IMG/VR virus record: IMGVR_UViG_3300031182_000006
DNA: 64,000 nt
From: an uncultured virus (IMG/VR IMGVR_UViG_3300031182_000006)
Lineage: Duplodnaviria; Heunggongvirae; Uroviricota; Caudoviricetes
Direction: 5' to 3' (one strand)
Part shown: positions 115 through 38,787 of the stretch, one piece after another
Position numbering within the stretch: the stretch's first letter is position 1
How the letters are laid out: each line of letters begins with the position of its first letter
Program-made: the position numbers and the translations under genes
Notes under the pieces: model-generated
What the model was told of the DNA's origin: nothing
The model's database searches: none
The model's input: the letters and a program-made list of their open reading frames with translations, nothing else

Positions 115-627
115 TTAAAGGTAGTAGCTATGCTTCTTCTTTTCTTTCTTGCCACCTTCGTAGCTGAACGAAAGTGCACCGAAACCGCCGAACGGCTCGC
201 GCTCGCGTTCTTCACGGCCTTCGAAACGATCATCCCGGTCTCCATGATCTTCGCTGTTCTTCCGGACGATCCGTTCATACAGTTCAGCAGCTTCCTTGAT
301 ATCGAAATTCAGAATACCAAGAGCTTCGCTGATGCGCACGTCGCGCTCTCTGTCCGGGTCCGTAAGGCAGCGAATTTGGTTGATCATGTCGTGAACGACG
401 CGCAGAGCGTTGCTGATGTCGCGGCCCGGAATTTGTTCCATGGAAAAGGTTTCGCCGCAACGTTTGCACTCAAAGCGACCATCAGACAGAACACGAAGAG
501 CAAGCTTGCCGCTTTTCTTGCGGTGGCTGCAACGAGATACAATGCGCTTTTCTTTCTCACGGAGTTGACGACGCAGTTCGTAAAGATCGTTTCTTTCTTT
601 GTCGAATTCTTTGTTTTTCTTACCCAT
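115..627 (-). CDS. hypothetical protein with putative Zn-ribbon
   Basis: 170 aa, GGAGG RBS, CSH...CKRC motifs, hairpin terminator at 57-90. Confidence 0.7.
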   Translation of the reverse strand: MGKKNKEFDKERNDLYELRRQLREKEKRIVSRCSHRKKSGKLALRVLSDGRFECKRCGETFSMEQIPGRDISNALRVVHDMINQIRCLTDPDRERDVRISEALGILNFDIKEAAELYERIVRKNSEDHGDRDDRFEGREEREREPFGGFGALSFSYEGGKKEKKKHSYYL

Positions 628-8048: not shown

Positions 8049-8508
8049 TTATAGTATAACATTCAATATTCTCAACGACTTCTTCTTAACGTCTTCGTTA
8101 ATTTTTTTAGTATGATCGCACCAAGCAAGATTTGTATATGTAAACTCACCCATATATTGGTTATCGTCTATTATGACAAAATTCTTTACAATGTTTTTAT
8201 TCTGATCCAACCATTGGCGTATTTCAATAGGTCGAATAGTTTTATCCATTTCTTGAACTAAAATAGGCGTACAGCCTATAAATTTATCAACAAGTCCATA
8301 TTTTCCCAATTCTTCTTTAATTGCCTCTATTGCCCATTCAAAATGGCGCCAATTGGACGAAATAACTATCCTAGCATCAGCTTCATGTACTATTTCTTTC
8401 AAATATTTCATAGCATGTTGTTCGAATGTAATATATCCTCTCTTGTTGGGCGATAGCATCATTTATCACCCCGTCTATATCCAAAAATATTATATTCAAT
8501 CTATCCAT
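8049..8508 (-). pseudogene. frameshifted HAD-family phosphatase (Swiss Army Knife RNA repair-like HAD)
   Basis: N-terminus MDRLNIIFLDIDGVIN from 8508 is out of frame with the IVISSNWR...FVIIDD body in ORF 8049..8462. Confidence 0.75.
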
Positions 8509-16221: not shown

Positions 16222-18375
16222 ATGAGCAGTAAAAACATTCAGATTCGTCACAAGAATGGTAGTGAATGGGATAATTTATACCCAAAAACAAAAGCGGAAT
16301 TAGTAGAAGGTCTTGATGAGCAACTTGCCGGAAAGGTTGATAAAGAAGAAGGTAAAGGTCTTTCTACTGAAGATTATACTACAGAAGAAAAGAATAAACT
16401 TGCGGGCATTGAGGAAGGAGCCAACAAATACGTTCATCCAACTAGTGCTGGTAATAAACATATTCCTTCTGGCGGTGCGCCTAACCAGGTACTTAAATAT
16501 GGCGGTTCGTCAGGAACCGCAACATGGGGTGCTCTGACATCTGCAGATATTCCTACATTGGCTCTTAGTAAGATTTCCGATGCAGGTACAGCAGCTTCCA
16601 GAGATATCGGTACTTCTGCTGGTAATGTGCCTGTATTGGATAGCAATGGTAAACTTGATGTTAATGTCCTTCCTGCAATTGCTATTTCGGATACTTTCGT
16701 TGTCGGAAGCGAAGGAGAAATGCTGGGTCTTACTGCGGAAGTTGGTGATATCGCGGTACGATCGGATATCAACAAAACATTCATTTTGAGAGCAGAACCT
16801 GCATCCGTAGTTGGCAACTGGCAAGAACTTTTGACTCCGACTTCCCCTGTACAATCTGTTGCAGGTAAAACCGGTGCAGTTACACTGGTTAAAGGTGACG
16901 TGGGACTCGGAAACGTCCAAAACTATGGAATAGCAACACAGGAAGAAGCAGAAGCCGGAACGTCCGATACCGCGTACATGACGCCGCTTAAAACAGCGCA
17001 GGCGATTGCTGCACTTGCACCCGCGCCGGATGCTTCGGAAGTTTCGCTTAGTTCACCGAATTTCACTTCTACCAACGTCCGGGATGGAATGGATGAACTT
17101 TTTCAATCTGTCAGTGATGGGAAAAATCAGATCGCTTCCGCCATCACTGACATGGGACAGTCTGCTTCAGGAGGCGACACGTTTGCGCAGTTGTCAAGCA
17201 AAATTCGGGACATCTCCAAGGACGCGAACGCGGCTGTTGGGGATGTTTTGACCGGTAAGACGTTTTATCAGGGCGGAGTAAAGCGCACCGGCACGATGCC
17301 CAATAACGGATCGGTTTCCCAAACGCTGACATCACAAGGCGAAGAATACACGATCCCGGAGGGATACCACGACGGCACCGGCACGGTCACGACCGACATC
17401 GTGAATCTGTCCGCAGGAAATATCCGAGCCGGTGCGACGGTAGGCGGCGTTGATGGTACGTTCACTAGCGACGCGACAGCCACGGCTGGTCAAATCTTGT
17501 CTGGCCGGACGGCGTATGTTAACGGCTCGAAGGTAACCGGCAGCATGATCAACAATGGAGCCGTCAGTCAAACCTTGACCACGCAGGGGGCGTCGTACAC
17601 AATCCCGGCAGGTTATCACAATGGCAGCGGCACAGTCACGGCCAATATCACCAACTTGACGGCGGCCAATATCAAGGCTGGTACGACGGTCGGCGGCGTA
17701 TCTGGAACATTCACAAGCGACGCAACCGCAACAGCCGCACAAATCTTGTCTGGCCGGACGGCGTATGTTAACGGCTCGAAGGTAACCGGCACGATGCCAG
17801 TCAAAACAAATGATTATGGCGCACCGCGTACAGGCCAAACTGGGCGTCTGTATGTGACACCGGAAGCAGGATACCATGACGGGACTGTAAGGGTCTATAC
17901 GGACGACGCTAATTTTAATGCTGCCAATATCAAGTCTGGGGTTACGCTGTTCGGAATAACCGGTACGTATGCGCCGATTTCCGTAGGTAGTACAACCCTG
18001 ACATTTAACCGATCCGGCTCCGGTAACAATGTTACGTCGATTATCTATTATGCGAATTACACGCCGCCCAAGACAAACTTTTTGGGGTCGTTCCAAATAC
18101 CCGTTACGTTCACAATCGGGAACATTGAATATAAAGGAGACCCGTTTAACAGCATCACGATCGGATATCCGACAAACCTAATCTTCGGCTATGGTTTGTA
18201 CATTGTCGACCCGACCGTTAATGCAGAAATACAAATCAGCGCCATTTATAATAGTAGCACTGGCCGTATTCAACTACAGATTGGTAACCCGTCCACAGCA
18301 AGTCCTAAAGCGTTGTTTACCAATATCAGCACCAATAGCTTTACAGCGGGTTTACGGTATGTTTCATGGGAGTGA
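16222..18375 (+). CDS. chimeric tail fibre protein (native N-terminus plus captured C-terminus)
   Basis: LYPKT, GANKYVHP, VQSVAGKTGAV modules; ~83-aa TIPxGYHxG/DATATA repeats; abrupt GC rise after ~16900. Confidence 0.85.
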   Translation: MSSKNIQIRHKNGSEWDNLYPKTKAELVEGLDEQLAGKVDKEEGKGLSTEDYTTEEKNKLAGIEEGANKYVHPTSAGNKHIPSGGAPNQVLKYGGSSGTATWGALTSADIPTLALSKISDAGTAASRDIGTSAGNVPVLDSNGKLDVNVLPAIAISDTFVVGSEGEMLGLTAEVGDIAVRSDINKTFILRAEPASVVGNWQELLTPTSPVQSVAGKTGAVTLVKGDVGLGNVQNYGIATQEEAEAGTSDTAYMTPLKTAQAIAALAPAPDASEVSLSSPNFTSTNVRDGMDELFQSVSDGKNQIASAITDMGQSASGGDTFAQLSSKIRDISKDANAAVGDVLTGKTFYQGGVKRTGTMPNNGSVSQTLTSQGEEYTIPEGYHDGTGTVTTDIVNLSAGNIRAGATVGGVDGTFTSDATATAGQILSGRTAYVNGSKVTGSMINNGAVSQTLTTQGASYTIPAGYHNGSGTVTANITNLTAANIKAGTTVGGVSGTFTSDATATAAQILSGRTAYVNGSKVTGTMPVKTNDYGAPRTGQTGRLYVTPEAGYHDGTVRVYTDDANFNAANIKSGVTLFGITGTYAPISVGSTTLTFNRSGSGNNVTSIIYYANYTPPKTNFLGSFQIPVTFTIGNIEYKGDPFNSITIGYPTNLIFGYGLYIVDPTVNAEIQISAIYNSSTGRIQLQIGNPSTASPKALFTNISTNSFTAGLRYVSWE
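16827..16901 (+). repeat. 75-bp direct repeat, copy 1
   Basis: identical to 18859-18933. Confidence 0.95.
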
Positions 18376-18425
18376 AATCGTGATGACGAGAGAGGACTCA
18401 TTATACAGATCGCATCGGCGGCCAA

Positions 18426-18578
18426 GCCGAGCAATATAAACAAATCACCGGATTTGATTATGAAGCGTAAGGCTCCGCCGAATAGGCGGGGCCTCATAAT
18501 CTGCACAGTGTGGTACAATTAGACGCTATGACGGCAGAAGAATATGAGCAGATTACGAGCGAGCCGTACACACCCTAA
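18426..18578 (+). pseudogene. two XkdX-like gene remnants
   Basis: AEQYKQITGFDYEA* (18426-18470) and MTAEEYEQITSEPYTP* (18528-18578) resemble the XkdX C-terminal ITxEEYxxITG motif. Confidence 0.65.
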
Positions 18579-18600
18579 TTAGGCGCAGAGACGTGTAATT

Positions 18601-18627
18601 AGACCCTGCTTAATGCGGGGTCTTTTT
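18601..18627 (+). terminator. intrinsic terminator
   Basis: agaccctgc-ttaat-gcggggtct followed by T-run. Confidence 0.8.
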
Positions 18628-18639
18628 GTTGACTTCGTA

Positions 18640-18668
18640 GTGACAAAAGGGAAATTTTATACGATAAT
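18640..18668 (+). promoter_or_regulatory. sigmaA-like promoter inside the captured segment
   Basis: GTGACA-17 bp-GATAAT. Confidence 0.5.
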
Positions 18669-18775
18669 AGTGTTAAAGTACTCGTAAAGTACGATTACGT
18701 TACCGTCGCTGGAAGGGGTGGAAAAGTTCCGATGGACTTTACGAGCCTTGGAGAGTACGGCGTAGGAATCGCGTC

Positions 18776-19670: not shown

Positions 19671-20420
19671 ATGGCAAAAAATATACTACAGAAACAATAC
19701 GTACCTGGTGTCGGATGGGTTGAGCTTCATCCAATTACTAAAGCGTCCAATATTATAGATTCAAACGGTCTTAGTGTACAAGAGCATATTGATGCTAAAA
19801 ATCCACATGGAACTGATAAAAGTGATGTAGGTCTTGGTAATGTTGAAAACTATGGTATTGCATCTAAAACTGAAGCCGAAGCCGGAACTGCAAGTAACAA
19901 GTACATGACACCACAAAGAACTTCCCAGGCAATTGCAGCTTTGTCGCCTGTGAAGTCGGTTGCTGGTAAGACGGGTGCAGTGACTCTCGTAAAGGGAGAT
20001 GTAGGTCTCGGAAACGTTGAGAACTATGGCATTGCATCTAAAACTGAAGCCGAAGAGGGAACTGCAAGTAATAAGTATATGACTCCTGAGAGAACATCTC
20101 AGGCGATTGCTGTTCAAGCCCAGGCTATTGCAGATGAAGTTGAAAACAGATCAAAAGAGTATGCTGATCTGTTGATGGAACAGAAGATTATTGAAATTCC
20201 TTCTAGGTCAGGTAAAGACGAGAATGGAATTTTCACGATCGTTGAATATTACAGACCAAATAATACATTAGCACGAAAAACCGAACTTAGCGGTGGGTCG
20301 TCTCCGAATTATACAACAAGAACCATAACCTTCTATGCAGAAGACGGTATGACTGTGACAAAAACAGTCACAAGAACCTTAATTTATGATGAGGATGGAG
20401 ATTTCCTGCGAGAAGAATAA
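19671..20420 (+). CDS. tail fibre-related protein
   Basis: two copies of VGLGNVENYGIASKTEAExGTASNKYMTP; AACA-N6-TA at 19592-19603. Confidence 0.75.
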   Translation: MAKNILQKQYVPGVGWVELHPITKASNIIDSNGLSVQEHIDAKNPHGTDKSDVGLGNVENYGIASKTEAEAGTASNKYMTPQRTSQAIAALSPVKSVAGKTGAVTLVKGDVGLGNVENYGIASKTEAEEGTASNKYMTPERTSQAIAVQAQAIADEVENRSKEYADLLMEQKIIEIPSRSGKDENGIFTIVEYYRPNNTLARKTELSGGSSPNYTTRTITFYAEDGMTVTKTVTRTLIYDEDGDFLREE

Positions 20421-20702: not shown

Positions 20703-22841
20703 GTGAAAGAAGTGAACGATTTAATTTATCATGGGTTAATTGGGAAAAAAATTGATTCTGTAGAGGTGCTAAATAATGAATTTATTGCTACAGATGACAA
20801 TGTGGAGCTGGCTAGTTCATATAATTTACCTAATACTGGACGCTCTGTCTCATTCTCTCCCGATGGTCAATATATAGCTGTAGGACATAGTGGTTCTCCT
20901 TATTTTACTCTATTAAAAAGAAATGGAGATAATGTAAAACTAGCTAGTAATTATATATTACCTAGTACTGGCTATGGTGTATCATTCTCTCCCGATGGTC
21001 AATATATAGCTGTAGCACATACTGCTTCTCCTAATTTTACTTTACTAAAAAGAAATGGAGATAATGTAGAATTAGCTAGTACTTATACATTACCTGGCAA
21101 TGGAAACTCTGTATCATTCTCTCCTGATGGTCAATATATAGCTGTAGGATATGATCTTTCTCCTCGTTTTACTTTACTAAAAAGAAATGGAGATAATGTA
21201 GAATTAGCTAGTAATTATATATTACCTGGTATTGGACGTTCTGTCTCATTCTCTCCCGATGGTCAATATATAGCTGTAGGGCATTATGCTTCTCCTTATT
21301 TTACTCTATTAAAAAGAAATGGAGATACTGTAGAACTAGCTAGTACTTATACATTACCTAGTGATGGCTTAGGTGTATCATTCTCTCCTGATGGTCAATA
21401 TATAGCTGTAGCACATAATGGTTCTCCTTATTTTACTTTACTAAAAAGAAATGGAGATAATGTAGAATTAGCTAGTACTTATACACTATCTAACTATGGC
21501 TTTGGTGTATCATTCTCTCCCGATGGTCAATATATAGCTGTAGGATATTATGGTTCTCCTTATTTTACTTTACTAAAAAGAAATGGAGATAATGTAGAAT
21601 TAGCTAGTACTTATACATTACCTGGCAATGGCACGGGTGTATCATTCTCTCCCGATGGTCAATATATAGCTGTAGGACATTTTAGTTCTCCTTATTTTAC
21701 TCTATTAAAAAGAAATGGAGTACAAGAAGCCATCGAAATTAAAACTAAAGTAAATGTTATTAAAGAAATTGATGGTCAGTTAAAAGAGGTTAAAAGTAAT
21801 AAGATATTTAGAGATGTAAAAGAATTAGTTTATAAGAATAATTATGAAAAAGTACTACTAGCTGATACTTATACATTACCCAATATCGCCACGGGTGTAT
21901 CATTTTCTCCCGATGGTCAATATATAGCTGTAGGACATTATGATTCTCCTTATTTTACTTTACTAAAAAGAAATGGAGATAATGTAGAATTAGCTAGTAA
22001 TTATACATTAACTGGTAATGCTGGAGGTGTATCATTCTCTCCTGATGGTAAATATATAGCTGTAGCATATTATGGTTCTCCTTATTTTACTCTATTAAAA
22101 AGAAATGGAGATAATGTAGAACTAGCTAGTACTTATACATTACCTAGTTATGGCCATGGTGTATTATTCTCTCCCGATGGTCAATATATAGCTGTAGCAC
22201 ATTGGGGTTCTCCTCATTTTACTTTACTAAAAAGAAATGGAGATAATGTAGAACTAGCTAGTAATTATACATTACCTGATATTGGCTTGAGAGTATCATT
22301 CTCTCCCGATGGTCAATATATAGCTGTAGGACATTATGGTTCTCCTTATTTTACTCTATTAAAAAGAAATGGAGATACTGTAGAACTAGCTAGTACTTAT
22401 ACATTACCTGGTGCTACCGAAAATGTATCATTCTCTCCCGATGGTCAATATATAGCTGTAGGATATTATGGTTCTCCTTATTTTACTCTATTAAAAAGAA
22501 ATGGGGATACTGTAGAATTAGCTAGTAATTATACATTACCTAATATTGGATACTCTGCCCCATTCTCTCCCGATGGTCAATATATAGCTGTAGCACATAA
22601 TGGTTCTCCTTATTTTACTTTACTAAAAAGAAATGGAGATAATGTAGAATTAGCTAGTACTTATACATTACCTGGTGATGGCTATAGTGTATCATTCTCT
22701 CCTGATGGTCAATATATAGCTGTAGGACATAATGGTTCTCCTTATTTTACTTTACTAAAAGCAGGAGGAACTTTTTCAAAAACCCCTCCAATCTTTATTG
22801 AATATAGAGGTAAAAGATATAAGATGCGTACAATTAATTGA
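20703..22841 (+). CDS. tandem 7+7-blade beta-propeller protein A, putative receptor-binding protein
   Basis: 14 copies of a 44-aa WD40-like repeat (SFSPDGQYIAV), split 7+7 by a ~40-aa linker. Confidence 0.85.
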   Translation: MKEVNDLIYHGLIGKKIDSVEVLNNEFIATDDNVELASSYNLPNTGRSVSFSPDGQYIAVGHSGSPYFTLLKRNGDNVKLASNYILPSTGYGVSFSPDGQYIAVAHTASPNFTLLKRNGDNVELASTYTLPGNGNSVSFSPDGQYIAVGYDLSPRFTLLKRNGDNVELASNYILPGIGRSVSFSPDGQYIAVGHYASPYFTLLKRNGDTVELASTYTLPSDGLGVSFSPDGQYIAVAHNGSPYFTLLKRNGDNVELASTYTLSNYGFGVSFSPDGQYIAVGYYGSPYFTLLKRNGDNVELASTYTLPGNGTGVSFSPDGQYIAVGHFSSPYFTLLKRNGVQEAIEIKTKVNVIKEIDGQLKEVKSNKIFRDVKELVYKNNYEKVLLADTYTLPNIATGVSFSPDGQYIAVGHYDSPYFTLLKRNGDNVELASNYTLTGNAGGVSFSPDGKYIAVAYYGSPYFTLLKRNGDNVELASTYTLPSYGHGVLFSPDGQYIAVAHWGSPHFTLLKRNGDNVELASNYTLPDIGLRVSFSPDGQYIAVGHYGSPYFTLLKRNGDTVELASTYTLPGATENVSFSPDGQYIAVGYYGSPYFTLLKRNGDTVELASNYTLPNIGYSAPFSPDGQYIAVAHNGSPYFTLLKRNGDNVELASTYTLPGDGYSVSFSPDGQYIAVGHNGSPYFTLLKAGGTFSKTPPIFIEYRGKRYKMRTIN

Positions 22842-25203
22842 TATGGGGATTTAAAATAAAAGATTTATATTTACATGAAATAATAAAAAGACATGCTTCA
22901 GCAAAAATACTAAAAAAAAATAAATTCAATTATACTGATGATGGACTAAATCTTATAAGATCATATATTTCATCATATATTGTATATGATGTGTCATTTC
23001 CCCCTTTGGTCAATTTATTCACGGTTCGTGACACGCTTTTCACCTTATTAAAGGCTAGTGATATATTTAAATCAAACCCCTTCCCAACTATTGTCGAATG
23101 TAGAGGGAGAAAATATAGAGTTAGGGAAAAATCTTAATAAAGGAGGTAAGTAATTTGGAAGAGCTTTATTTTCACGAATTGCTACGACAAGGCGTTTCAG
23201 TAAATATTCTAAATAATAAATTTATTGCTACAGATGACAATGTGGAGCCGGCTAGTTCATATAAATTGCCTAACTATGGCTATAGTGTTTCATTCTCTCC
23301 CGATGGTCAATATATAGCTGTAGGACATGTTGGTTCTCCTCGTTTTACTTTACTAAAAAGAAATGGAGATAATGTAGAATTAGCTAGTACTTATACATTA
23401 TCCGATACTGGACGCTCTATCTCATTCTCTCCCGATGGTCAATATATAGCTATAGGACATAGCGGTTCTCCTGGTTTTACTTTACTAAAAAGAAATGGAG
23501 ATAATGTAGAACTAGCTACTAAATATACATTACCTGATGTTGGATATGGTACGGCATTCTCTCCCGATGGTCAATATATAGCTGTGGGACATAATGGTTC
23601 TCCTTATTTTACTCTATTAAAAAGAAATGGAGATAATGTAGAACTAGCTAGTACTTATACATTATCCGCTACTGGACGTTCTGTCTCATTCTCTCCCGAT
23701 GGTCAATATATAGCTGTAGCACATGCTGGTTCTCCTCGTTTTACTTTACTAAAAAGAAATGGAGATAATGTAGAACTAGCTAGTACTTATACATTACCTA
23801 GTGATAGCTTTGATGCATCATTCTCTCCTGATGGTCAATATATAGCTGTAGCACATTATGTTTCTCCTCATTTTACTCTATTAAAAAGAAATGGAGATAA
23901 TGTAGAACTAGCTAGTACTTATACATTACCTAGTACTGGCTTGGGTGTATCATTCTCTCCCGATGGTCGATATATAGCTGTAGCACATTATGGTTCTCCT
24001 TATTTTACTTTACTAAAAAGAAATGGAGATAATGTAGAACTAGCTAGTACTTATACATTACCTAGTGTCGCCATGGATGTATCATTCTCTCCCGATGGTC
24101 AATATATAGCTGTAGGATATATTAATTCTCCTCCTTATTTTACTCTATTAAAAAGAAATGGAGTACAAGAAGCCATCGAAATTAAAACTAAAGTAAATGT
24201 TATTAAAGAAATTGATGGTCAGTTAGAAGAGGTTAAAGGTAATAAGATATTTAGAGATGTAAAAGAATTAGTTTATAAGAATAATTATGAAAAAGTATTA
24301 CTAGCTAGTACTTATACATTACCTTTTACTAGCTTGGATGTATCATTCTCTCCCGATGGTCAATATATAGCTGTAGAACATAATAGTTCTCCTTATTTTA
24401 CTTTACTAAAAAGAAATGGAGATAATGTAGAACTAGCTAGTACTTATACATTACCTGGTGGTGCCGAAGGTATATCATTCTCTCCCGATGGCAAATATAT
24501 AGCTGTAGCACATTATGGTTCTCCTTATTTTACTTTACTAAAAAGAAATGGAGATAATGTAGAATTAGCTAGTACTTATACATTATCTGACGGTGGCTAT
24601 GGTGTATCATTCTCTCCCGATGGTCAATATATAGCTGTAGGACATCATGGTTCTCCTTATTTTACTCTATTAAAAAGAAATGGAGATAATGTAGAACTAG
24701 CTAGTAATTATACATTACCTAGTAATGGCTTGGGTGTATCATTTTCTCCCGATGGTCAATATATAGCTGTAGGATATAATGGTTTTCCTTATTTTACTTT
24801 ACTAAAAAGAAATGGAGATAATGTAGAATTAGCTAGTACTTATACATTACCTGGTACTAGCTATGGTGTATCATTCTCTCCCGATGGTCAATATATAGCA
24901 GTGGGACATTTTGGTTCTCCTTATTTTACTCTATTAAAAAGAAATGGAGATAATGTAGAATTAGCTAGTACTTATACATTACCTGGTAATGCCGAAGATG
25001 TATCATTCTCTCCCGATGGTCAATATATAGCTGTAGGACATTGGGGTTCTCCTTGTTTTACTCTATTAAAAAGAAATGGAGATAATGTAGAACTAGCTAG
25101 TAATTATACATTACCTGGTACTAGCTATGGTGTATCATTCTCTCCCGATGGTCAATATATAGCAGTGGGACATAGCGATTCTCCTTATTTTACCCTATTA
25201 AAA
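20796..25203 (+). repeat. 28 coding tandem repeats of about 132 bp in four arrays of seven
   Basis: near-invariant tcattctctcccgatggtcaatatatagctgtag and ctaaaaagaaatggagataatgtagaa frameworks. Confidence 0.95.
22838..23137 (+). CDS. collapsed paralog of the propeller genes
   Basis: shares LYxHE..NKF..TDD start, FTLLKA, and ExRGxxY end, with one degenerate blade. Confidence 0.65.
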   Translation: MIWGFKIKDLYLHEIIKRHASAKILKKNKFNYTDDGLNLIRSYISSYIVYDVSFPPLVNLFTVRDTLFTLLKASDIFKSNPFPTIVECRGRKYRVREKS

Positions 25204-25278
25204 GCAGGAGGAACTTTTTCATCACAAAATCCTATTATTATAAAATATAGAGATGTCGAATACGAACTTGTGTGGTAA
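23155..25278 (+). CDS. tandem 7+7-blade beta-propeller protein B, putative receptor-binding protein
   Basis: same architecture and near-identical linker as 20703..22841; AAGGAGG RBS. Confidence 0.85.
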   Translation: MEELYFHELLRQGVSVNILNNKFIATDDNVEPASSYKLPNYGYSVSFSPDGQYIAVGHVGSPRFTLLKRNGDNVELASTYTLSDTGRSISFSPDGQYIAIGHSGSPGFTLLKRNGDNVELATKYTLPDVGYGTAFSPDGQYIAVGHNGSPYFTLLKRNGDNVELASTYTLSATGRSVSFSPDGQYIAVAHAGSPRFTLLKRNGDNVELASTYTLPSDSFDASFSPDGQYIAVAHYVSPHFTLLKRNGDNVELASTYTLPSTGLGVSFSPDGRYIAVAHYGSPYFTLLKRNGDNVELASTYTLPSVAMDVSFSPDGQYIAVGYINSPPYFTLLKRNGVQEAIEIKTKVNVIKEIDGQLEEVKGNKIFRDVKELVYKNNYEKVLLASTYTLPFTSLDVSFSPDGQYIAVEHNSSPYFTLLKRNGDNVELASTYTLPGGAEGISFSPDGKYIAVAHYGSPYFTLLKRNGDNVELASTYTLSDGGYGVSFSPDGQYIAVGHHGSPYFTLLKRNGDNVELASNYTLPSNGLGVSFSPDGQYIAVGYNGFPYFTLLKRNGDNVELASTYTLPGTSYGVSFSPDGQYIAVGHFGSPYFTLLKRNGDNVELASTYTLPGNAEDVSFSPDGQYIAVGHWGSPCFTLLKRNGDNVELASNYTLPGTSYGVSFSPDGQYIAVGHSDSPYFTLLKAGGTFSSQNPIIIKYRDVEYELVW

Positions 25279-25864: not shown

Positions 25865-27994
25865 TTATTTCCTCTTGCTCTTCAGAGACATAATCGGCAT
25901 ACTGCGTAATTTGAAACTCTTGACAGCCTGCTCCATAAAATACTCTTGGACATTGAATGGAACAGGACTTTTCAAAAGTTCGTACTGATTGTCTTTATTG
26001 AGAATGTAGGTGTTGAATGTGTCGCGGAAATACATTTTCAAAATAGACAAGAGTTTATTTCTGGAATTTTCGTCCGTAATCGGAACCAGAAGTTCAACCC
26101 GTCTGTCCAAATTCCGCGTCAACATATCAGCACTTGAAATGAAAATATCTGACTTTCCATTATTGTAGAAGAAGTAAATTCTACTATGCTCTAGAAATCT
26201 ACCAACAACACTCTTGATGCTGATGTTCGAATTGATTTTCTTCATCGAGCATATACCTCTACAGATAATGGATATCTTGACACCCTGCTCAGAGGCCTCA
26301 TACAGCTTCTTGATAATACCCAGATCAGAAAGGGAGTTAAGCTTCAACGTAATGAAAGCTTGTCTACCCTTTTGAGCATTCTCGATCTCTCGATCGATAA
26401 GCTGATACAATCTCAATCTCAGATTGTACGGAGCATAGAAAATTTTGCTCACTTCGTCTCTGGGATCGGAGAAACCTGACAAGACATTAAATATCGTCAA
26501 CAGGTCATCCGCTATTTTGCTGCTGGATGTGAAGTAGGAAATATCGGTATAGATTGACGCAGTCTTGTCGTTGTAATTTCCTGTACCGATATGGCAATAC
26601 GTTTTGAGATTTTTCTTTCCTTTCCTCACAACCAATATAAATTTACAATGTGTTTTCAACTCCTCAATACCATAGATCAATTTACAGCCGGATACTTTTA
26701 GTTTTTCTATCAACGACATATTTCTATTCTCATCAAACCTTGCTTTAATTTCGAGAAGAACACTTACCTGCTTTCCTCTTTCAGCAGCCCTACACAACGC
26801 CTCGACAATCGGGGACTCCGCAGAAGATACTCTATACAGAGTCAATTTGATTGCCAAGACATCATTATCCTCGGCCGCATGTTCGAGGAATTTGATAACC
26901 GGTGTGAACGACTCGTAAGGGTGATGAAGAATGAGATCGCCGTTGTCGATAGCAGTAAACATATCGTGCTCGCCGATCAGATCTTCTGGATACTGAGGGT
27001 TGAACGGGTCGTACTCGTAAGCCGCATTTCTTATCGGCTTACTTAAGAGAAACGACATGTCTACGATGTTTTCACATTTAAACACTTGCCTCTTGTCAAT
27101 GTCGAAGATTTTGGTCAGAAGTTTGAGGGTTTCCTTAGGAACATCACTGTCGATATCCATGAAGATGGGTTTACTAAACTCCCGTTTAATGAGAGTTTCC
27201 CTCATTCGGTCGACAATATAAATATCCCGTCTTCCCTCAATTTCAATATCCGCCTCACGAATGATTCTCATACATCCCCTATAGATGATACTCTTGTTGA
27301 TAAATACCTTGTGGAGAAAATTAAAGATAATATCCTCCAACAAGATATATCGTTCTTCATCGCTCTCGTCAGTCTCAATCTTGTACAAACGATCAAGACC
27401 ATGGAGTGGGATGATGGACATTACATTCAGATTTGGATTTTTCTTGTCCCCTAGAGAAGCTATTATGCATAGCTGCTTAGATTTAATAAGGGGAAATTCT
27501 TTGGTTGAGTCAAAGGTGATCGGGGTCAGCAACGGATAAATGTTTCTTTCGAAAAGCTTTCTTACATAATCAACTTCCTTTTCACTGAGATGCTTGAACT
27601 TACAAATCGTGAAATTGTTTTTACGCAGTTTCTTTCTCAGTTTTTCAAAGCTTTCTTGCTGGATTTCTTTGAAAGAAATAATTTCCCGGAGCAAGAGTTC
27701 ATATTCTTGCTCCGGGAGAAGACCAGCAATATCCGTTTCTGTATACCCCAATCTGAGTTTATTAAGGATAGATGAAAATCTAACCATAATAAACTCATCC
27801 AGGTTCGATTCCGTGATACCCAAGAACTTAAGTCTCTCCAAAAGAGGAACCTCAGTTCTCATAGTTTGATGGAGAACCCTTTTATTGAACTCCATCCAAC
27901 TCAATTCACGATTCATATAGAATCCTGGATTATTAAACTTTGACCTAATCCTATCTCTTTCAACGTCGAAGAGATCACTAAGATTGTTAGTCAT
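25865..27994 (-). CDS. ppk1: polyphosphate kinase 1
   Basis: NRELSW, SNLDEF, HHPYESF, TLYR, KARFDE, KTHCK, GTGNYN, GRFLEHSR, RNLDRRVE; full length 709 aa. Confidence 0.95.
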   Translation of the reverse strand: MTNNLSDLFDVERDRIRSKFNNPGFYMNRELSWMEFNKRVLHQTMRTEVPLLERLKFLGITESNLDEFIMVRFSSILNKLRLGYTETDIAGLLPEQEYELLLREIISFKEIQQESFEKLRKKLRKNNFTICKFKHLSEKEVDYVRKLFERNIYPLLTPITFDSTKEFPLIKSKQLCIIASLGDKKNPNLNVMSIIPLHGLDRLYKIETDESDEERYILLEDIIFNFLHKVFINKSIIYRGCMRIIREADIEIEGRRDIYIVDRMRETLIKREFSKPIFMDIDSDVPKETLKLLTKIFDIDKRQVFKCENIVDMSFLLSKPIRNAAYEYDPFNPQYPEDLIGEHDMFTAIDNGDLILHHPYESFTPVIKFLEHAAEDNDVLAIKLTLYRVSSAESPIVEALCRAAERGKQVSVLLEIKARFDENRNMSLIEKLKVSGCKLIYGIEELKTHCKFILVVRKGKKNLKTYCHIGTGNYNDKTASIYTDISYFTSSSKIADDLLTIFNVLSGFSDPRDEVSKIFYAPYNLRLRLYQLIDREIENAQKGRQAFITLKLNSLSDLGIIKKLYEASEQGVKISIICRGICSMKKINSNISIKSVVGRFLEHSRIYFFYNNGKSDIFISSADMLTRNLDRRVELLVPITDENSRNKLLSILKMYFRDTFNTYILNKDNQYELLKSPVPFNVQEYFMEQAVKSFKLRSMPIMSLKSKRK

Positions 27995-30675: not shown

Positions 30676-31236
30676 TTATTTAAAGAATTGAACGATACCT
30701 TTCTCTGTCATAATGCCTCCAATACGCATACCAAAGTGATCCTTTTTCATGATGACCACTTCAAATCCAGCCTCTTCCAGCGTCTGTAAAGCTTTAGGAT
30801 GAGCCAATCCCTGATAAGTGAAAATTGCTTCGCAGCATAAGTCATTCAATTCACCATCAGGATCTTCGATGAGATTGGCTTTGGAGACGATATTATCATC
30901 TGTTTCAATTTCTTTCAGCCGCCTGATAAGATTTTGGACTTTTTCGGCTTTATAATACAATAGTTCTATAGCGAGATTGAATGGGACTCTAGCTATAGCC
31001 CTAACACCGATTGAATACAAATATCTGAAAATTTCTTCTCGTTGGGTCGAAGTTGTATCGAACGTTTTGTTAACATGAATGCCACCATAGAAGATAGAAT
31101 CTAAATTTTCTCTGCGATGGCTTTGCAATTCTTCGAGAACGAATATTCCATTCTCATCATTATATTCAATGAGTATAAAAGCTCCCTTAAAACGATCTTT
31201 ATAATAAATAGGTTTTTCAATTTTAATAATTCCCAT
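30676..31236 (-). CDS. hypothetical early protein
   Basis: 186 aa, AGGAGG RBS, TATATATTAT at 31283-31292. Confidence 0.65.
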   Translation of the reverse strand: MGIIKIEKPIYYKDRFKGAFILIEYNDENGIFVLEELQSHRRENLDSIFYGGIHVNKTFDTTSTQREEIFRYLYSIGVRAIARVPFNLAIELLYYKAEKVQNLIRRLKEIETDDNIVSKANLIEDPDGELNDLCCEAIFTYQGLAHPKALQTLEEAGFEVVIMKKDHFGMRIGGIMTEKGIVQFFK

Positions 31237-31329
31237 GAAGATTTTCCTCCTAAGAATTTATTTATTATTGATATTCACGTTTATAATATATATTTTTATA
31301 AACTAAATTTACAAAAAAACACTAAAAAA

Positions 31330-31355
31330 ATCACTAACGCTTCAACGTTAGTGAT
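31330..31355 (-). terminator. intrinsic terminator
   Basis: atcactaacg/cgttagtgat stem with T7 tail on the minus strand. Confidence 0.8.
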
Positions 31356-31369
31356 CAAAGTTTTAATCG

Positions 31370-31562
31370 ACCAGGCGGCCACCGGAAACCGTCCATCGCG
31401 CCCGTCTATGCGCACGAGGTCGCAGCAAAAATAGCCGTCAGGAAAGCGGGTCGCAGGGCAGCGACCGATCCCCGCTAACCCAGACAGCTCCGGGAAGTGC
31501 CGCAATACCGCATGAGGGCTTCGCTCGGCCATCCGCCGAAACACCCGGTGACCGTCCTGGTT
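31370..31562 (-). ncRNA. structured ncRNA of about 193 nt, 6S-like size and shape, family unassigned
   Basis: very GC-rich island; 5' and 3' ends pair; nested helices; promoter motif at the 5' end and terminator downstream. Confidence 0.7.
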
Positions 31563-31611
31563 ACTAAATAGTTCCATAAATAATAAAAAAATTATATAAT
31601 TTTTTTATTAT

Positions 31612-32139
31612 TTATGAAGTTTTTTGTGCTTGATATTTTCTATAATAGTCATCTTTAGTATACAGGGTATCCATAAACTTTCCATCTCTCCAAAACTCAA
31701 CACCTTCGCATCCGGTTCTACTTTCATAGATATCGAAAGCACTATCGATATCCGGGCCATTATATAAAACAACAGCCTCACCACGCGAAGATCTGAAGAC
31801 AAGGAAGAGATCGTTTGCTTTAACATCCATTTTTGTTTTGAGGAACTCTTTTGCCATCATATCACGTGCATCCAGTATCTGCTTCTTGATCCTGAATGCA
31901 TAAAAATCTTTGTCATCGTAAAGATTAATAAATTTTGTGCGTTCTCTTTCTTCTTTATTTTGCATCAGATCGATATAGACAATCGAATCCGTATCGATCA
32001 CAAACCACTTGTCATTGGGATATTTGAATCTGAGATACAGGGACCAGAACTCATTGTGGCTCTGATCATGAAGATAGCAAACTTTCCTCGTCTTGGAGTA
32101 AAGGGCATAGATTTTATACATGTTTGCCATGTTTATCAT
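31612..32139 (-). CDS. hypothetical protein
   Basis: 175 aa ORF in minus-strand run. Confidence 0.6.
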   Translation of the reverse strand: MINMANMYKIYALYSKTRKVCYLHDQSHNEFWSLYLRFKYPNDKWFVIDTDSIVYIDLMQNKEERERTKFINLYDDKDFYAFRIKKQILDARDMMAKEFLKTKMDVKANDLFLVFRSSRGEAVVLYNGPDIDSAFDIYESRTGCEGVEFWRDGKFMDTLYTKDDYYRKYQAQKTS

Positions 32140-32159: not shown

Positions 32160-32879
32160 TTAATTATTATTAAATTTATCTTTGAATTCTTTTATGCTGT
32201 TAAGATTAAATGAAGAATGTAATTTATCTGCTACCCAAACATCCAACTGGGGTTTTTCTTTCTTATGACGATTAAATGCTTTAAGTGCCTTTTCTGAATC
32301 AACACCGTTGTACACCGTGGTCATTACGAGATTGGGCATAATTGTAACTTGAAAGATTGGGGCCATTTTATTACCAAACAAATTAGTTCCGGGAATTATT
32401 TTGAAGTTATTGATATCCTTAAGACTAAGCGTATAAACCGTCTCACGTTTATCAATAACCTCAATCGTGCCAGGATAATCTTTGGGTACTTTATAACGCT
32501 TTTTCAACCACCTGAGATTTTCTTCAACCAATTCCTCTCTGGTATTAAACACTAACCCATAAAAGTTTATAACGAGCCAGTTTTGTCCCTCTCCCTTTGC
32601 AAACAATTCTGCCGCACTAGGAGGAAGCCCTAAGGCTTCTCCTATTGCCATATTCATATCGAAAGCTCTACCTTTCTTTCGACCTTCTCTCATCTTATTT
32701 TCAAACTCGATCATCATATCACGAGTTTGAAAAAAGATCATGAATCCCCTATCCAACTTGATAAAAGGAAAGCCTTTCTCTCTTAAACTGTTAACAAATT
32801 CTTTCTCATTATTCTTGAATATAATTGCTGGCTTAAAACCGTCAAGAAAGAATTTAAGTGAGGCATATTGTGGCTGCAT
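32160..32879 (-). CDS. hypothetical protein
   Basis: 239 aa, AAGGAG RBS; C-terminal YNGxD segment resembles that of 31612..32139. Confidence 0.65.
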   Translation of the reverse strand: MQPQYASLKFFLDGFKPAIIFKNNEKEFVNSLREKGFPFIKLDRGFMIFFQTRDMMIEFENKMREGRKKGRAFDMNMAIGEALGLPPSAAELFAKGEGQNWLVINFYGLVFNTREELVEENLRWLKKRYKVPKDYPGTIEVIDKRETVYTLSLKDINNFKIIPGTNLFGNKMAPIFQVTIMPNLVMTTVYNGVDSEKALKAFNRHKKEKPQLDVWVADKLHSSFNLNSIKEFKDKFNNN

Positions 32880-35118: not shown

Positions 35119-36534
35119 TCAAATATTATTGAACTCGTAAAGACCAATCAATTGGTCTTTAAGAAGATTGAATTCATTGTTAAACAACCCGTCGTTCCTA
35201 GAAATGAACATATTAAGTCTCGGATTAAATGCCCTGAACGCCTTTTTCAGTTCTTTCGTTTTCAGTGACACAATATTGAGAACGTCACCATCGAAGTCCG
35301 CGTTCAAGACAGTGAGAACTTGAATCGGAATCGACATGGTATAATCCTCTTCGTGTGCACGTTTAATGTCAATAACTTTCATACAGAGTACCGATCCATA
35401 GTTAATGGTTGGATTCCGGTTAATGATCATAGCCGGTTTCCATTTCTTAACGATGTACATCATCACTTCATAGATCTTAGGGTCGAAGTTTATTGTTGCC
35501 TTATACCATTCCTCATATGCTTCGTTATGAGTAATTCTCTCCATTTTGGCCAGAAGAGCAATTATCTCATATTTGTACAATTCGAGGAACGTTAAATACC
35601 CCAGACGAATTTCATCTGCTCTCAAAGTTGGATCGGGGATAACAACGTTTCTTGCAGAAAAGTTGATTCGACCACCAAGAAGCTGATACCTGATATGCCC
35701 ATCTTTTTGGTTAACTTGATTGAATACAAGTTGCCAAAGTTCATTAACTTTCTTTTGAATTACAGACAAGGTTACAGCTTCTCCGAGTTTTTCTTTCTTT
35801 TTCCTCTGACGAGTCGTCAGGAGAGACTCATCATGAAGAAGTCTACTTAATGCAAAGATCGTTTCATATTTTCTATCAAAGCTACTAAAGAAGAAGTTTT
35901 CACCTCTAAACGAGACCGGTCGAAGAACCGACGAGTATACCGGGATACAAGATGCAAAAACTTTGTCCTTATCCCTCATAATCTCATCGAAAAGTTCCGT
36001 TTGTTTATTCTTCTTCTTTTCGTAGAAATAATCCATAATCTCTTCGAATCTTTCACGAAACTCGATCAACCCAATACCTTTAAATGGACTTTTTCCTTTC
36101 TTGCTAATAATTTCACCATCTCTGGTGATTTCTTTGTCGTATTCAATGATTTCACTGAAAGCTTTATCGCCAATGGCGACTTTAAGCATTCTATAGAACA
36201 ACGGTTGAATAATAGCATAATCGCCGAGTTTAATCCAACCGGTAACTTTCATATTCACGTCACGAAAGATTACTTTATGTCCACAAATTTTACATACCTC
36301 GCCTTCGTATACACGACCTTTAAGTTCCTTACATCTACAGCTATATCTTTCCGAGAATGCATCTTCGTCTTCCCAATCGGTCGCAAACCTAGGCGATTGA
36401 ATACCATTGAATGATTTTTCTTCTTTATTTTTTATGAATGCGTAATCCGTAACTTCAAAACCGTTTCCGGTAATAAAACTAATTTCACATTGTTCATCCC
36501 AACTAATTTTCTTCAATTGTACAGTTTTACCCAT
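35119..36534 (-). CDS. multisubunit RNA polymerase beta' N-terminal (catalytic) subunit
   Basis: Zn finger CRC...CKIC, GRINFSAR, NRNPT, catalytic NADFDGD. Confidence 0.92.
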   Translation of the reverse strand: MGKTVQLKKISWDEQCEISFITGNGFEVTDYAFIKNKEEKSFNGIQSPRFATDWEDEDAFSERYSCRCKELKGRVYEGEVCKICGHKVIFRDVNMKVTGWIKLGDYAIIQPLFYRMLKVAIGDKAFSEIIEYDKEITRDGEIISKKGKSPFKGIGLIEFRERFEEIMDYFYEKKKNKQTELFDEIMRDKDKVFASCIPVYSSVLRPVSFRGENFFFSSFDRKYETIFALSRLLHDESLLTTRQRKKKEKLGEAVTLSVIQKKVNELWQLVFNQVNQKDGHIRYQLLGGRINFSARNVVIPDPTLRADEIRLGYLTFLELYKYEIIALLAKMERITHNEAYEEWYKATINFDPKIYEVMMYIVKKWKPAMIINRNPTINYGSVLCMKVIDIKRAHEEDYTMSIPIQVLTVLNADFDGDVLNIVSLKTKELKKAFRAFNPRLNMFISRNDGLFNNEFNLLKDQLIGLYEFNNI

Positions 36535-38322: not shown

Positions 38323-38787
38323 CTAACTTCTCGCTCGTTTATTCAAAATGCGCCTTATTTTCCATGTGTATTTTTCTGTCAATCCCGTTTTTCTATCACA
38401 CTTTACAAGATTTTCTTTAACCAAGCCCAAATCGAAGTCGTCATCGTCGATTACAACATAGCCCGTTATAAGTACCATTTTAGTAATTGTTTCGAGGAAA
38501 GCCTTGATTTCAAGATCCCGTCGACCCAACTCATCAGTTTTTCCAATTATTCTATCAGCAATAACGTTGTTGTAGTGTCTGAATATGTTTCTAAGCTCCT
38601 CCACGGTACGACCTATTCTCCAAGAAGAACTCACTATAATCCACGCATTATTTTCAACAAGAATATTTCTTAGAGTTCTAATTGCTCTTGGAGACATTTC
38701 AAGACCAAAATGTACTTCTGGATCGGATGGGTATGGATGATCTTCACAATTCATTACTCCGTCTATGTCCAAAAATATAAGTTTCAT
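38323..38787 (-). CDS. HAD-family phosphatase (Swiss Army Knife RNA repair-like HAD)
   Basis: FLDIDGV, VSSSWR, VVIDD. Confidence 0.85.
   Translation of the reverse strand: MKLIFLDIDGVMNCEDHPYPSDPEVHFGLEMSPRAIRTLRNILVENNAWIIVSSSWRIGRTVEELRNIFRHYNNVIADRIIGKTDELGRRDLEIKAFLETITKMVLITGYVVIDDDDFDLGLVKENLVKCDRKTGLTEKYTWKIRRILNKRARS

Follow-up and report, generated by a model that had tools for sequence, protein, structure and literature searches.

A phage-encoded, abundant and structured RNA without a known family in a GC-rich island of an AR9-like jumbo phage

We examined a 64,000-nucleotide (nt) stretch of DNA, hereafter the window, from an uncultured virus of the Caudoviricetes (IMG/VR record IMGVR_UViG_3300031182_000006), an AR9-like jumbo phage. 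The minus strand of the window encodes a structured RNA of 193 nt at 31370 to 31562, numbered so that position p of the RNA is 31563 - p in the window (positions 1 to 193). With 69 G, 57 C, 43 U, and 24 A, the RNA forms an island of 65% guanine plus cytosine (GC) in a window that averages 35.4%. Its 100-nt GC maximum of 0.68 is the highest among the six window islands that reach at least 0.55. A preliminary description, made from the letters alone, had proposed a GC-rich minus-strand RNA of about 193 nt at this place and had likened it to the 6S RNAs that sequester bacterial RNA polymerase. Every element that it described for the island is present where it had been placed. Taken together, the data identify the island as the gene of a separately transcribed, end-protected, highly abundant, non-coding accessory RNA.

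The RNA is flanked by two genes on the same minus strand, one upstream (31612-32139, 175 amino acids [aa]) and one downstream (30676-31236, 186 aa). Directly before it, at 31562-31573 on the minus strand, is a late-promoter-like motif of the type recognized by the AR9 non-virion RNA polymerase, AACT-N6-TA, which reads AACT-ATTTAG-TA from 31573 to 31562. The predicted +1 is the A at 31562, and the closing stem of the RNA begins one base later, so that the start predicted earlier does fall at the foot of the stem. For AR9, PMC5312081 gives the late consensus as AACA-(6N)-TA/G, with transcription starting at the last base. Among the 75 open reading frame (ORF) calls used for the promoter analysis, AACW-N6-TA occurs 15 times in sense orientation within 70 nt upstream (5 times in antisense), compared with 5.7 ± 2.3 (maximum, 16) in 300 shuffles. 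The motif is found at 2.88 per kb upstream of genes versus 0.79 per kb inside them, and the same AACT variant precedes the genes at 12336 and 61006. These counts support, but do not prove, the reading of AACT-N6-TA as a putative late promoter for the non-virion polymerase.

An alternative, sigma-70-like promoter (TTCATA-16-TATAAT, 10 of 12 matches) is located at 31591-31618 on the minus strand. Scanning for the sigma-70-like consensus returned 4 sites versus 2.0 ± 1.5 in shuffles, which is no evidence that it is used. Overlapping this region, at 31585-31606 (minus strand) and 3' of the upstream gene, is an all-A/T hairpin, A7-TTATATAA-T7. The counterpart of this hairpin in L016, a contig discussed below, is A6/T6 (1524-1543), each arm being one base shorter, so that both arms have changed together.

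Behind the RNA, an AU-rich linker of 13 nt leads to an intrinsic terminator at 31321-31356 (minus strand), which consists of a 12-pair hairpin from 31356 to 31329 and a T run; a terminator had been expected here. Farther downstream, at 31276-31293 on the minus strand, the next gene (30676-31236) is preceded by an early promoter of the AR9 type, TATATATTAT-N6-G. The early consensus in PMC5312081 is AAATATATATTAT-(6N)-G, of which the octamer TATATTAT is the core. This octamer lies within 80 nt upstream of 12 of the 75 ORFs and occurs 24 times in the whole window when both strands are counted; 12 occurrences are no more than 70 nt upstream of an ORF versus 5 within coding sequence. The downstream gene therefore has its own early promoter behind the terminator, and the RNA is a separate transcription unit rather than a leader.

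Transcript evidence came from sequencing runs. Twenty listed runs contain at least part of 31200-31750, and six of these are RNA libraries. Coverage was examined in the form of assembled contigs for three RNA runs (X10, X16, and X17) and one DNA run (X12). In X10, a metatranscriptome, the summed word depth over 31388-31555 was 9,355 to 135,105, while the contigs of the flanking genes had depths of 38.6 and 47. The RNA core thus exceeds its flanking genes by 200- to 2,900-fold, an excess that cannot be DNA. X16 yielded a 184-nt contig (31371-31554) at a depth of 19, with most flanking bins at 0, and X17 yielded a 230-nt contig (31371-31602). The contigs of X16 and X17, which come from two studies, share an end at 31371, where a single base of the stem is still missing; the 6,418-nt DNA contig of X12 continues through 31371 downstream. 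We take the common stop as a weak hint of a 3' end, probably produced by 3' trimming to the stem. None of the RNA contigs examined in X10, X16, and X17 reached the terminator. X10 has no cover at 31340-31387 and 31556-31579, and this is no evidence of absence there. At 31548 (position 15), one X10 contig with a depth of 13,208 gives way immediately to adapter sequence; position 15 is either the end of a dominant molecule or a strong reverse-transcriptase stop. The shared end at 31371 and the X10 core depth far above the flanks indicate a discrete transcript, on which the earlier proposal of an RNA gene had depended.

Lying between two same-strand genes, the RNA could instead act in cis, either as a 3' stabilizer of the upstream mRNA or as a leader or riboswitch of the downstream gene. 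The X17 contig, which links the RNA to 40 nt of upstream sequence, would fit such a role. However, a terminator and then a separate early promoter follow the RNA before the downstream gene, the X10 depth is 200- to 2,900-fold that of the upstream gene, and the X16 flanking bins are mostly 0. No riboswitch model in Rfam matched, and we rejected a riboswitch on these grounds. We regard a cis-acting element as extremely improbable.

The minus strand of the island is predicted to fold far better than expected from its composition. At 37°C, its minimum free energy (MFE) is -97.6 kcal/mol, compared with -82.8 ± 4.6 kcal/mol for 200 dinucleotide shuffles (z, -3.25; 1 of 200 as good). The fold at 65°C has a z of -3.91, and none of the 200 shuffles was as good. 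For the plus strand of the island, the z is -1.56, and 12 of the 200 shuffles did equally well. Two further GC-rich islands of this phage (L047, 1786-1990 and 2257-2450), folded to control for GC content alone, gave z values of -0.30, -0.68, and +1.02. The fold signal of the RNA exceeds chance.

The predicted structure has a closing stem, whose 5' arm lies at 31544-31561 (positions 2 to 19) and whose 3' arm lies at 31370-31386 (positions 177 to 193), both on the minus strand. Positions 2-7 pair with 188-193 (mean probability, 0.97) and positions 9-19 pair with 177-187 (0.94), leaving A8 bulged. The long minus-strand stem of the preliminary description was thus recovered with pair probabilities of 0.94 to 0.97. 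Inside it, a side hairpin at 31525-31539 (minus strand, positions 24 to 38; loop GGAUG; mean pair probability, 0.89) sits in a large asymmetric loop formed by 20-43 and 164-176 and is kept at 37, 55, and 65°C. A long apical arm follows at 31420-31505 (minus strand, positions 58 to 143), with four helices, inner loops, and a hexaloop (helix probabilities, 0.74 to 0.95). At 55 and 65°C, the MFE structure is a rod with one side hairpin, comprising an 18-pair stem, the asymmetric loop (24 nt including the hairpin versus 13 nt), and the long arm. At 37°C, the MFE structure is a multibranched fold, and the rod lies 1.6 kcal/mol above it.

This balance bears on the nested helices that had been listed. 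All of them exist, and UUGCGGCA/UGCUGCGA, AGCUGUC/GACGGCU, AGCGG/CCGCU, and GGUCGC/GCGACC stand as described, but GCCC/GGGC and AUGCG/CGCAU lie outside the 37°C MFE structure; they belong to an alternative fold of -96.0 kcal/mol at 37°C and have a pair probability of about 0.08. The fold at 65°C has 6 G-U pairs and that at 37°C has 10, and these would become mismatches on the opposite strand. This agrees with the claim that they favor the minus strand, as does the modest z of the plus strand.

A 93-aa ORF (31296-31577) is open across the whole island, and we considered whether the region encodes this protein instead of an RNA. Besides the open frame, the GC content by codon position in the island (0.69/0.55/0.72) shows a mild phase bias that would suit coding sequence. 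However, its ATG start at 31577 comes before the predicted +1, the frame extends through the terminator, and no GGAGG-type ribosome-binding site precedes it, unlike the neighboring genes. In a natural variant (L018, and likewise X12 and X17), the loss of one U from the U run at positions 131-135 ends the ORF after 56 aa. Neither Pfam nor PHROG assigned the ORF to a family. A HMMER search of this one frame against 1.84 billion representative proteins gave 4 matches at an E value of 0.001 or less; 2 are variants of the ORF itself, and 2 are repetitive proteins (38% and 28% identity over short repeated stretches) that we regard as spurious matches, leaving no real homologue. Translation of the overlapping ORF, which would have spoken against an RNA gene, is itself contradicted by the frameshift variants and the missing ribosome-binding site, and a 93-aa product is barely credible.

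Three haplotypes of the RNA were found: that of the window (A14, U5), that of P0001 (G14, U5), and that shared by L018, X12, and X17 (G14, U4). Through the A14-to-G change, one A-U pair in the closing stem becomes a G-U pair, so that pairing is kept on the minus strand only, and the lost U falls in an inner loop. Both variable sites are structure neutral.

Database searches placed the RNA in no family. With Rfam release 15, the whole window gave no match at the gathering score. When matches with E values of up to 10 were allowed for 31200-31750, 8 were returned, none of them to 6S RNA, signal recognition particle RNA (SRP), RNase P, transfer-messenger RNA (tmRNA), a riboswitch, or a ribozyme. 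The best of these, CRISPR-DR66 at 31571-31592 (20.9 bits; E value, 0.4), lies in the AT-rich upstream region and was taken as chance. ARAGORN found no tRNA or tmRNA genes in the window, and a tRNA or tmRNA identity, including the D-arm resemblance of positions 32-41, was rejected. In blastn searches with near and distant modes, no match to the RNA was found in 50,697 phage records; a blastn search of 72,556 plasmids likewise gave no match. Three exact-segment scans of 2.9 million viral contigs gave 13 loci, of which 3 belong to the phage's own contig. The 10 others scored no more than 17 bits with a covariance model for the RNA (R1), driven by the seeded 17-mer. The 4 of these loci that the third scan had seeded contain no tRNA, and the 3 of them searched against Rfam matched no family.

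Five related jumbo phages, whose polymerase subunit is 60 to 67% identical, allowed the locus itself to be compared. Neither their 21-kb loci nor their whole records gave a hit with model R1 (none of the five), and four of the five are rated complete. In the relatives, the gene order is the polymerase gene, a homologue of g32904, a variable stretch, a homologue of g29368, and polyphosphate kinase. Counterparts of 32160-32879, 31612-32139, the RNA, and 30676-31236 are absent from the relatives' loci. Because the relatives lack both the RNA and its three neighbors, the RNA lies within an accessory insert specific to its lineage. We also considered whether the relatives carry an analogous RNA here and rejected the idea, since ORFs fill the variable stretches of L014 and L015. 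The covariation among related phages by which the preliminary description had hoped to check the structure is not available, the RNA being present in 0 of 4 complete relatives.

The two flanking proteins share this isolation. No PHROG or Pfam family was assigned to the 175-aa or the 186-aa protein, and their relatives among viral contigs are found only within the same phage. In metagenome contigs, the 175-aa protein has 3 loci, all 100% identical and again from the same phage. A protein atlas gave no usable lead for either protein.

An orphan island of 65% GC in a 35% GC genome, within a variable lineage-specific insert, might also be captured foreign DNA or a palindromic element resembling miniature inverted-repeat transposable elements, with 17-bp terminal inverted repeats and no function, whose hairpin simply resists nucleases. 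The mild codon-phase bias of the RNA island (0.69/0.55/0.72) would suit such an origin, as would two more islands in the same phage with 100-nt GC of up to 0.70 and coding-like codon-phase GC. Several results speak against it. An R1 search of the window together with G001, which covers about 203 kb of the 212-kb contig IMGVR_UViG_3300031466_000001 of the phage, found just one copy of the element. G001 is another part of the same phage and is 100% identical up to window position 23330, where G001 ends. No copy was found in the phage, plasmid, or viral-contig collections, host genomes being outside the search, and no target-site duplication is visible at the ends, although inverted ends are present. 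Unlike the other islands, the RNA folds far better than shuffles; a phage promoter +1 on one side and a phage terminator on the other frame it to the base; and its 200- to 2,900-fold excess over the flanks is large for a decay product. We therefore consider functionless captured DNA rather unlikely.

The two further islands are at L047 1786-1990 and 2205-2450 (G001, 81.8 to 82.5 kb). Their codon-phase GC values are 0.75/0.50/0.69 and 0.77/0.46/0.61, and their minus-strand frames are protein-like. At the end of the second are a hydrophobic stretch and a terminator-like hairpin rich in GC, and an early-type promoter points into the first on the opposite strand. Neither folds better than shuffles, and they look like captured foreign genes or fragments. 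Within the window, a 717-aa ORF without a Pfam family (in 16222-18775) contains a GC-rich island of about 1 kb (16923-17917, up to 0.65), across which a 254-aa ORF is open on the opposite strand; the 400-nt intergenic region in this area (18376-18775) appears, by eye, to be GC richer and to hold a sigma-70-promoter-like sequence. Another window ORF, of 170 aa and charge rich (115-627, minus strand), reaches a GC of 0.62, has no Pfam family, and has a late-type motif upstream. In G001 at about 109 kb (L048, 8958-9224), three tRNA genes (Leu-TAA, Met-CAT, and Thr-TGT) coincide with a GC island.

A second arrangement of the RNA was found in one of the three metagenome loci of the 175-aa protein, L016, a 1,898-nt contig that is 99.9% identical to the window with 2 gaps and represents a haplotype distinct from that of the window. 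In L016, the upstream gene is followed by RNA positions 1-181 and then directly by position 19 onward to the contig end; aligned to the model, positions 15-181 are followed immediately by positions 25-171. What is joined head to tail is thus an inner unit of 163 nt, at 31386-31548 on the minus strand (positions 15 to 177). Its placement is ambiguous by 4 nt, the CCGG at 15-18 being identical to the CCGG at 178-181, and this tetranucleotide is the palindromic top of the closing stem. An ORF predicted from L016 is on record as P0002.

The functional form of the RNA might, then, be a covalently closed circle of 163 nt or a multimer of units joined head to tail, cut out of the linear transcript where the closing stem ends on its inner side. 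L016, in which positions 1-181 are still linked to the upstream gene and pass directly into 19 onward, suggests as much; the junction ORF is on record, and the X10 contig end at position 15 (depth, 13,208) would fix the unit as 15-177. However, no head-to-tail joint was reported in the three RNA runs examined (X10, X16, and X17), and L016 could derive from RNA or from DNA. The identity of four bases (CCGG) at the joint is the trace expected of template switching, and rare switches assemble at a depth of 10^5. Cleavage before C15 and after U177 would produce 5' overhangs of 4 nt, unlike cleavage by RNase III. A bulge-helix-bulge splicing motif was rejected, as pairing is normal on both sides of the CCGG helix. 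Rfam gave no match to a model of a self-cleaving ribozyme, at the gathering score or with E values of up to 10.

Enzymes that could close or copy such a unit were also sought. Neither RtcB, the PF09414 ligase, nor the reverse-transcriptase domain RVT_1 was found in any of 5 records, including G001 from the same phage. The PF09511 ligase was absent from G001, the 1 record searched, and its control was negative everywhere, which makes this absence weak evidence. The Pfam scan of 73 window ORFs showed no reverse transcriptase or RNA ligase, and with G001 these searches extend to about 203 kb of the phage's 212 kb. A concatemer of four 163-nt units has 3 to 5 stops in every frame on both strands. 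On balance, we think a functional circle or multimer possible but doubtful. Two window genes (8049-8462 and 38323-38787) encode the HAD domain of "Swiss Army Knife" RNA-repair proteins (E values, 7e-19 and 8e-22), with no RNA ligase or RtcB alongside.

The joint may also have arisen by template switching of a reverse transcriptase that stalled 4 pairs into the stem or ran off a 5' end at position 15. A self-complementary CCGG at the end of the cDNA would re-anneal to the CCGG at 178-181, in the same or another molecule, and would give exactly this joint. Alternatively, it may be a tandem duplication in DNA. A combined version, in which the inner 163 nt would be excised at the palindromic CCGG, circularized without intron, ribozyme, or phage ligase, and put to use as an ultra-stable polymerase decoy, is very unlikely.

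We return to the reading of the island as a separately transcribed, non-coding accessory RNA and to how it might work. In the model that we propose, the non-virion (late) polymerase of the phage would start at the A at 31562, the first base of the GC-rich 18-pair closing stem, and would stop at the terminator 13 nt behind the stem. Removal of the AU-rich linker and terminator would leave a molecule of about 192 nt with both ends locked in the stem, and part of the pool would be shortened further to an inner core beginning at position 15. The RNA would then accumulate to a very high level and act in trans; most likely it would bind a protein and hold it, host RNA polymerase being only one candidate. 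Trans action, protein binding, 3' trimming, and the choice of polymerase are what we infer from the properties of the RNA and its surroundings. The chances that it is a trans-acting late RNA that works through its shape, most simply by protein binding, seem to us evenly balanced.

Several points weigh against this model. The contigs give no strand, exact ends, or true level, and RNA libraries may contain DNA. The X17 contig reaches 31602, which is 40 nt upstream of the predicted +1; therefore, some read-through RNA or DNA exists. The late motif of the RNA has T at the fourth base where AR9 has A; it is also short and common, with 92 copies on both strands of the window, and the sigma-70-like promoter lies upstream of the RNA as well. 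The fold is a purely thermodynamic prediction, with two structures within 1.6 kcal/mol of each other at 37°C. With only 2 variable sites and no homologue beyond near-identical copies, there is no covariation. Protein binding is conjectured from the properties of the RNA. Finally, other GC-rich islands look like captured coding DNA, and a foreign origin without function is possible.

One specific form of trans action is the 6S-type decoy put forward in the preliminary description, in which the RNA would mimic an open promoter and sequester the host holoenzyme, silencing the host while the phage polymerases continue. The general architecture of 6S RNA (see also PMC8545117) serves for comparison. 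Measured against it, the size of about 190 nt, the high abundance, and the ends closed by a long stem fit, as does the rod predicted at 55 to 65°C, with its asymmetric loop (20-43 versus 164-176) between stem and long arm. The phage encodes its own multisubunit-type polymerase, a subunit gene of which lies at 35119-36534 (phrog_2987, E value of 7.6e-70; Pfam RNA_pol_Rpb1_2). However, the scan that had been suggested against 6S, SRP, and other models matched no family. Specifically, 6S RNA was not matched at the gathering score in the window or with E values of up to 10 in 31200-31750, so that 6S family identity found no support. In a control, the 6S model (RF00013) matched in 5 of 14 control genomes, above the cutoff in 4. 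The large loop lies 19 nt from the 5' end and is not central, the rod is not the MFE structure at 37°C, and the RNA is absent from 4 of 4 complete relatives that also carry the phage polymerase. A late-type promoter fits host shutoff poorly. Neither a phage-encoded 6S-like RNA nor a circular RNA encoded by a jumbo phage was among the literature matches listed, which is weak evidence that no such RNA has been published. Taken together, a decoy of the 6S type is decidedly unlikely.

A variant of this idea concerns the viral polymerase. Unpaired UGUU at positions 20-23, adjoining the closing stem, reads 3'-UUGU-5'. According to PMC9209446, the AR9 non-virion polymerase recognizes a uracil-dependent template-strand element, 3'-UUGU-N6-AU-5', and can start on single strands. 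With the N6 spacing, the RNA offers U12 at +1 and C rather than A at -1, so that 5 of 6 specified bases fit. By analogy, the RNA could be a "6S RNA" for the viral polymerase, with the uracil supplied by the RNA itself. UGUU is expected about 0.7 times by chance in the RNA (an estimate from composition), and the match is therefore only a lead.

Other genes of the window and of its relatives have features of their own. By Pfam, the window also encodes a DnaB-like helicase, RNase H, a polyphosphate kinase, and an amidase with SLH domains. The polyphosphate kinase 1 gene (25865-27994) is full length and adjoins the g29368 homologue in all 5 related jumbo phages at 60 to 66% identity; its matches to bacterial kinases comprise 15 loci at 31 to 38% identity in unrelated phyla. 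Two neighboring proteins of about 710 aa (20703-22841 and 23155-25278) consist of beta-propeller repeats of the WD40/PD40 type. A segment of about 110 nt (20000-20112) recurs twice nearby in G001, at 159257-159367 and 156331-156442 (86% and 69% identity). In three AT-rich relatives (L011, 10001-12468; L012, 10001-11787; L013, 8177-13097), the polymerase subunit gene is matched in 2 to 4 pieces that lie about 0.4 to 1.4 kb apart, which suggests introns or inteins; L012 and L013 have GC-richer spots just behind the last piece.

Few stable non-coding RNAs are known from phages, and most of them lack an explanation; the one described here is unusually well defined. It is a single gene with its own promoter and terminator and with stem-locked ends, and in one environmental sample it is hundreds to thousands of times as abundant as its neighbors. 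It has no relatives even in sister phages and so gives the impression of an accessory gene that was recently invented or captured. Should it bind a polymerase or a defense protein, this group of phages, whose transcription does not depend on the host, would have a new RNA tool for host takeover. A genuine 163-nt circle would mean that a bacterial virus encodes a circular RNA in its DNA and makes it by an unfamiliar route. What we have at present is a phage-encoded, stable, structured RNA without a family.

The RNA belongs to none of the four groups with which we compared it: 6S RNA, the stable RNAs of PhiKZ and T4, the template RNAs of reverse-transcriptase systems, and viroid-like circles. 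To 6S RNA (RF00013), it is similar in being about 190 nt long and highly abundant, with ends closed by a long stem, and in having, in the fold predicted at 55 to 65°C, a large internal loop between two duplex arms. Against the 6S standard of an abundant, stable RNA of about 160 to 200 nt, its 193 nt and its word depth of up to 135,105 in X10 fall within the range. It differs in that no covariance model matches, in that its loop lies near the 5' end and carries a side hairpin, in being encoded by a phage, in its lack of conservation among related phages, and in its late-type phage promoter.

Retron msr-msd and the rolling-circle template of DRT2 are template RNAs of reverse-transcriptase systems. 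They resemble the phage RNA in having ends paired in a long stem, and its joint coincides exactly with the inner end of that stem, a place at which a polymerase could jump. In contrast to these systems, neither the 5 records nor the window holds RVT_1, and unlike the DRT2 template, the concatemer has no endless frame, with stops in all six. Small, GC-rich circles with rod-like or branched folds and head-to-tail junctions have been collected from metatranscriptomes as viroid-like elements (work cited in PMC12571901). The phage RNA shares the small size, the GC richness, the type of fold, and the head-to-tail junction but is encoded in phage DNA, with a promoter and a terminator, and matches no ribozyme model.

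A CsrA-type sponge was also considered and rejected; the RNA has 5 GGA triplets, close to the expectation from base composition. Large phages also have small stable RNAs that are likewise unexplained, those of T4 among them. Non-coding RNAs of the jumbo phage PhiKZ have been found by Grad-seq (PMC8545117). As described there, they are phage encoded, intergenic, non-coding, and stable, with functions still unexplained, and in all of these respects the RNA reported here is like them. The PhiKZ candidate is about 100 nt long, whereas the present RNA is about twice that length, is very GC rich relative to its genome, and has a head-to-tail form.

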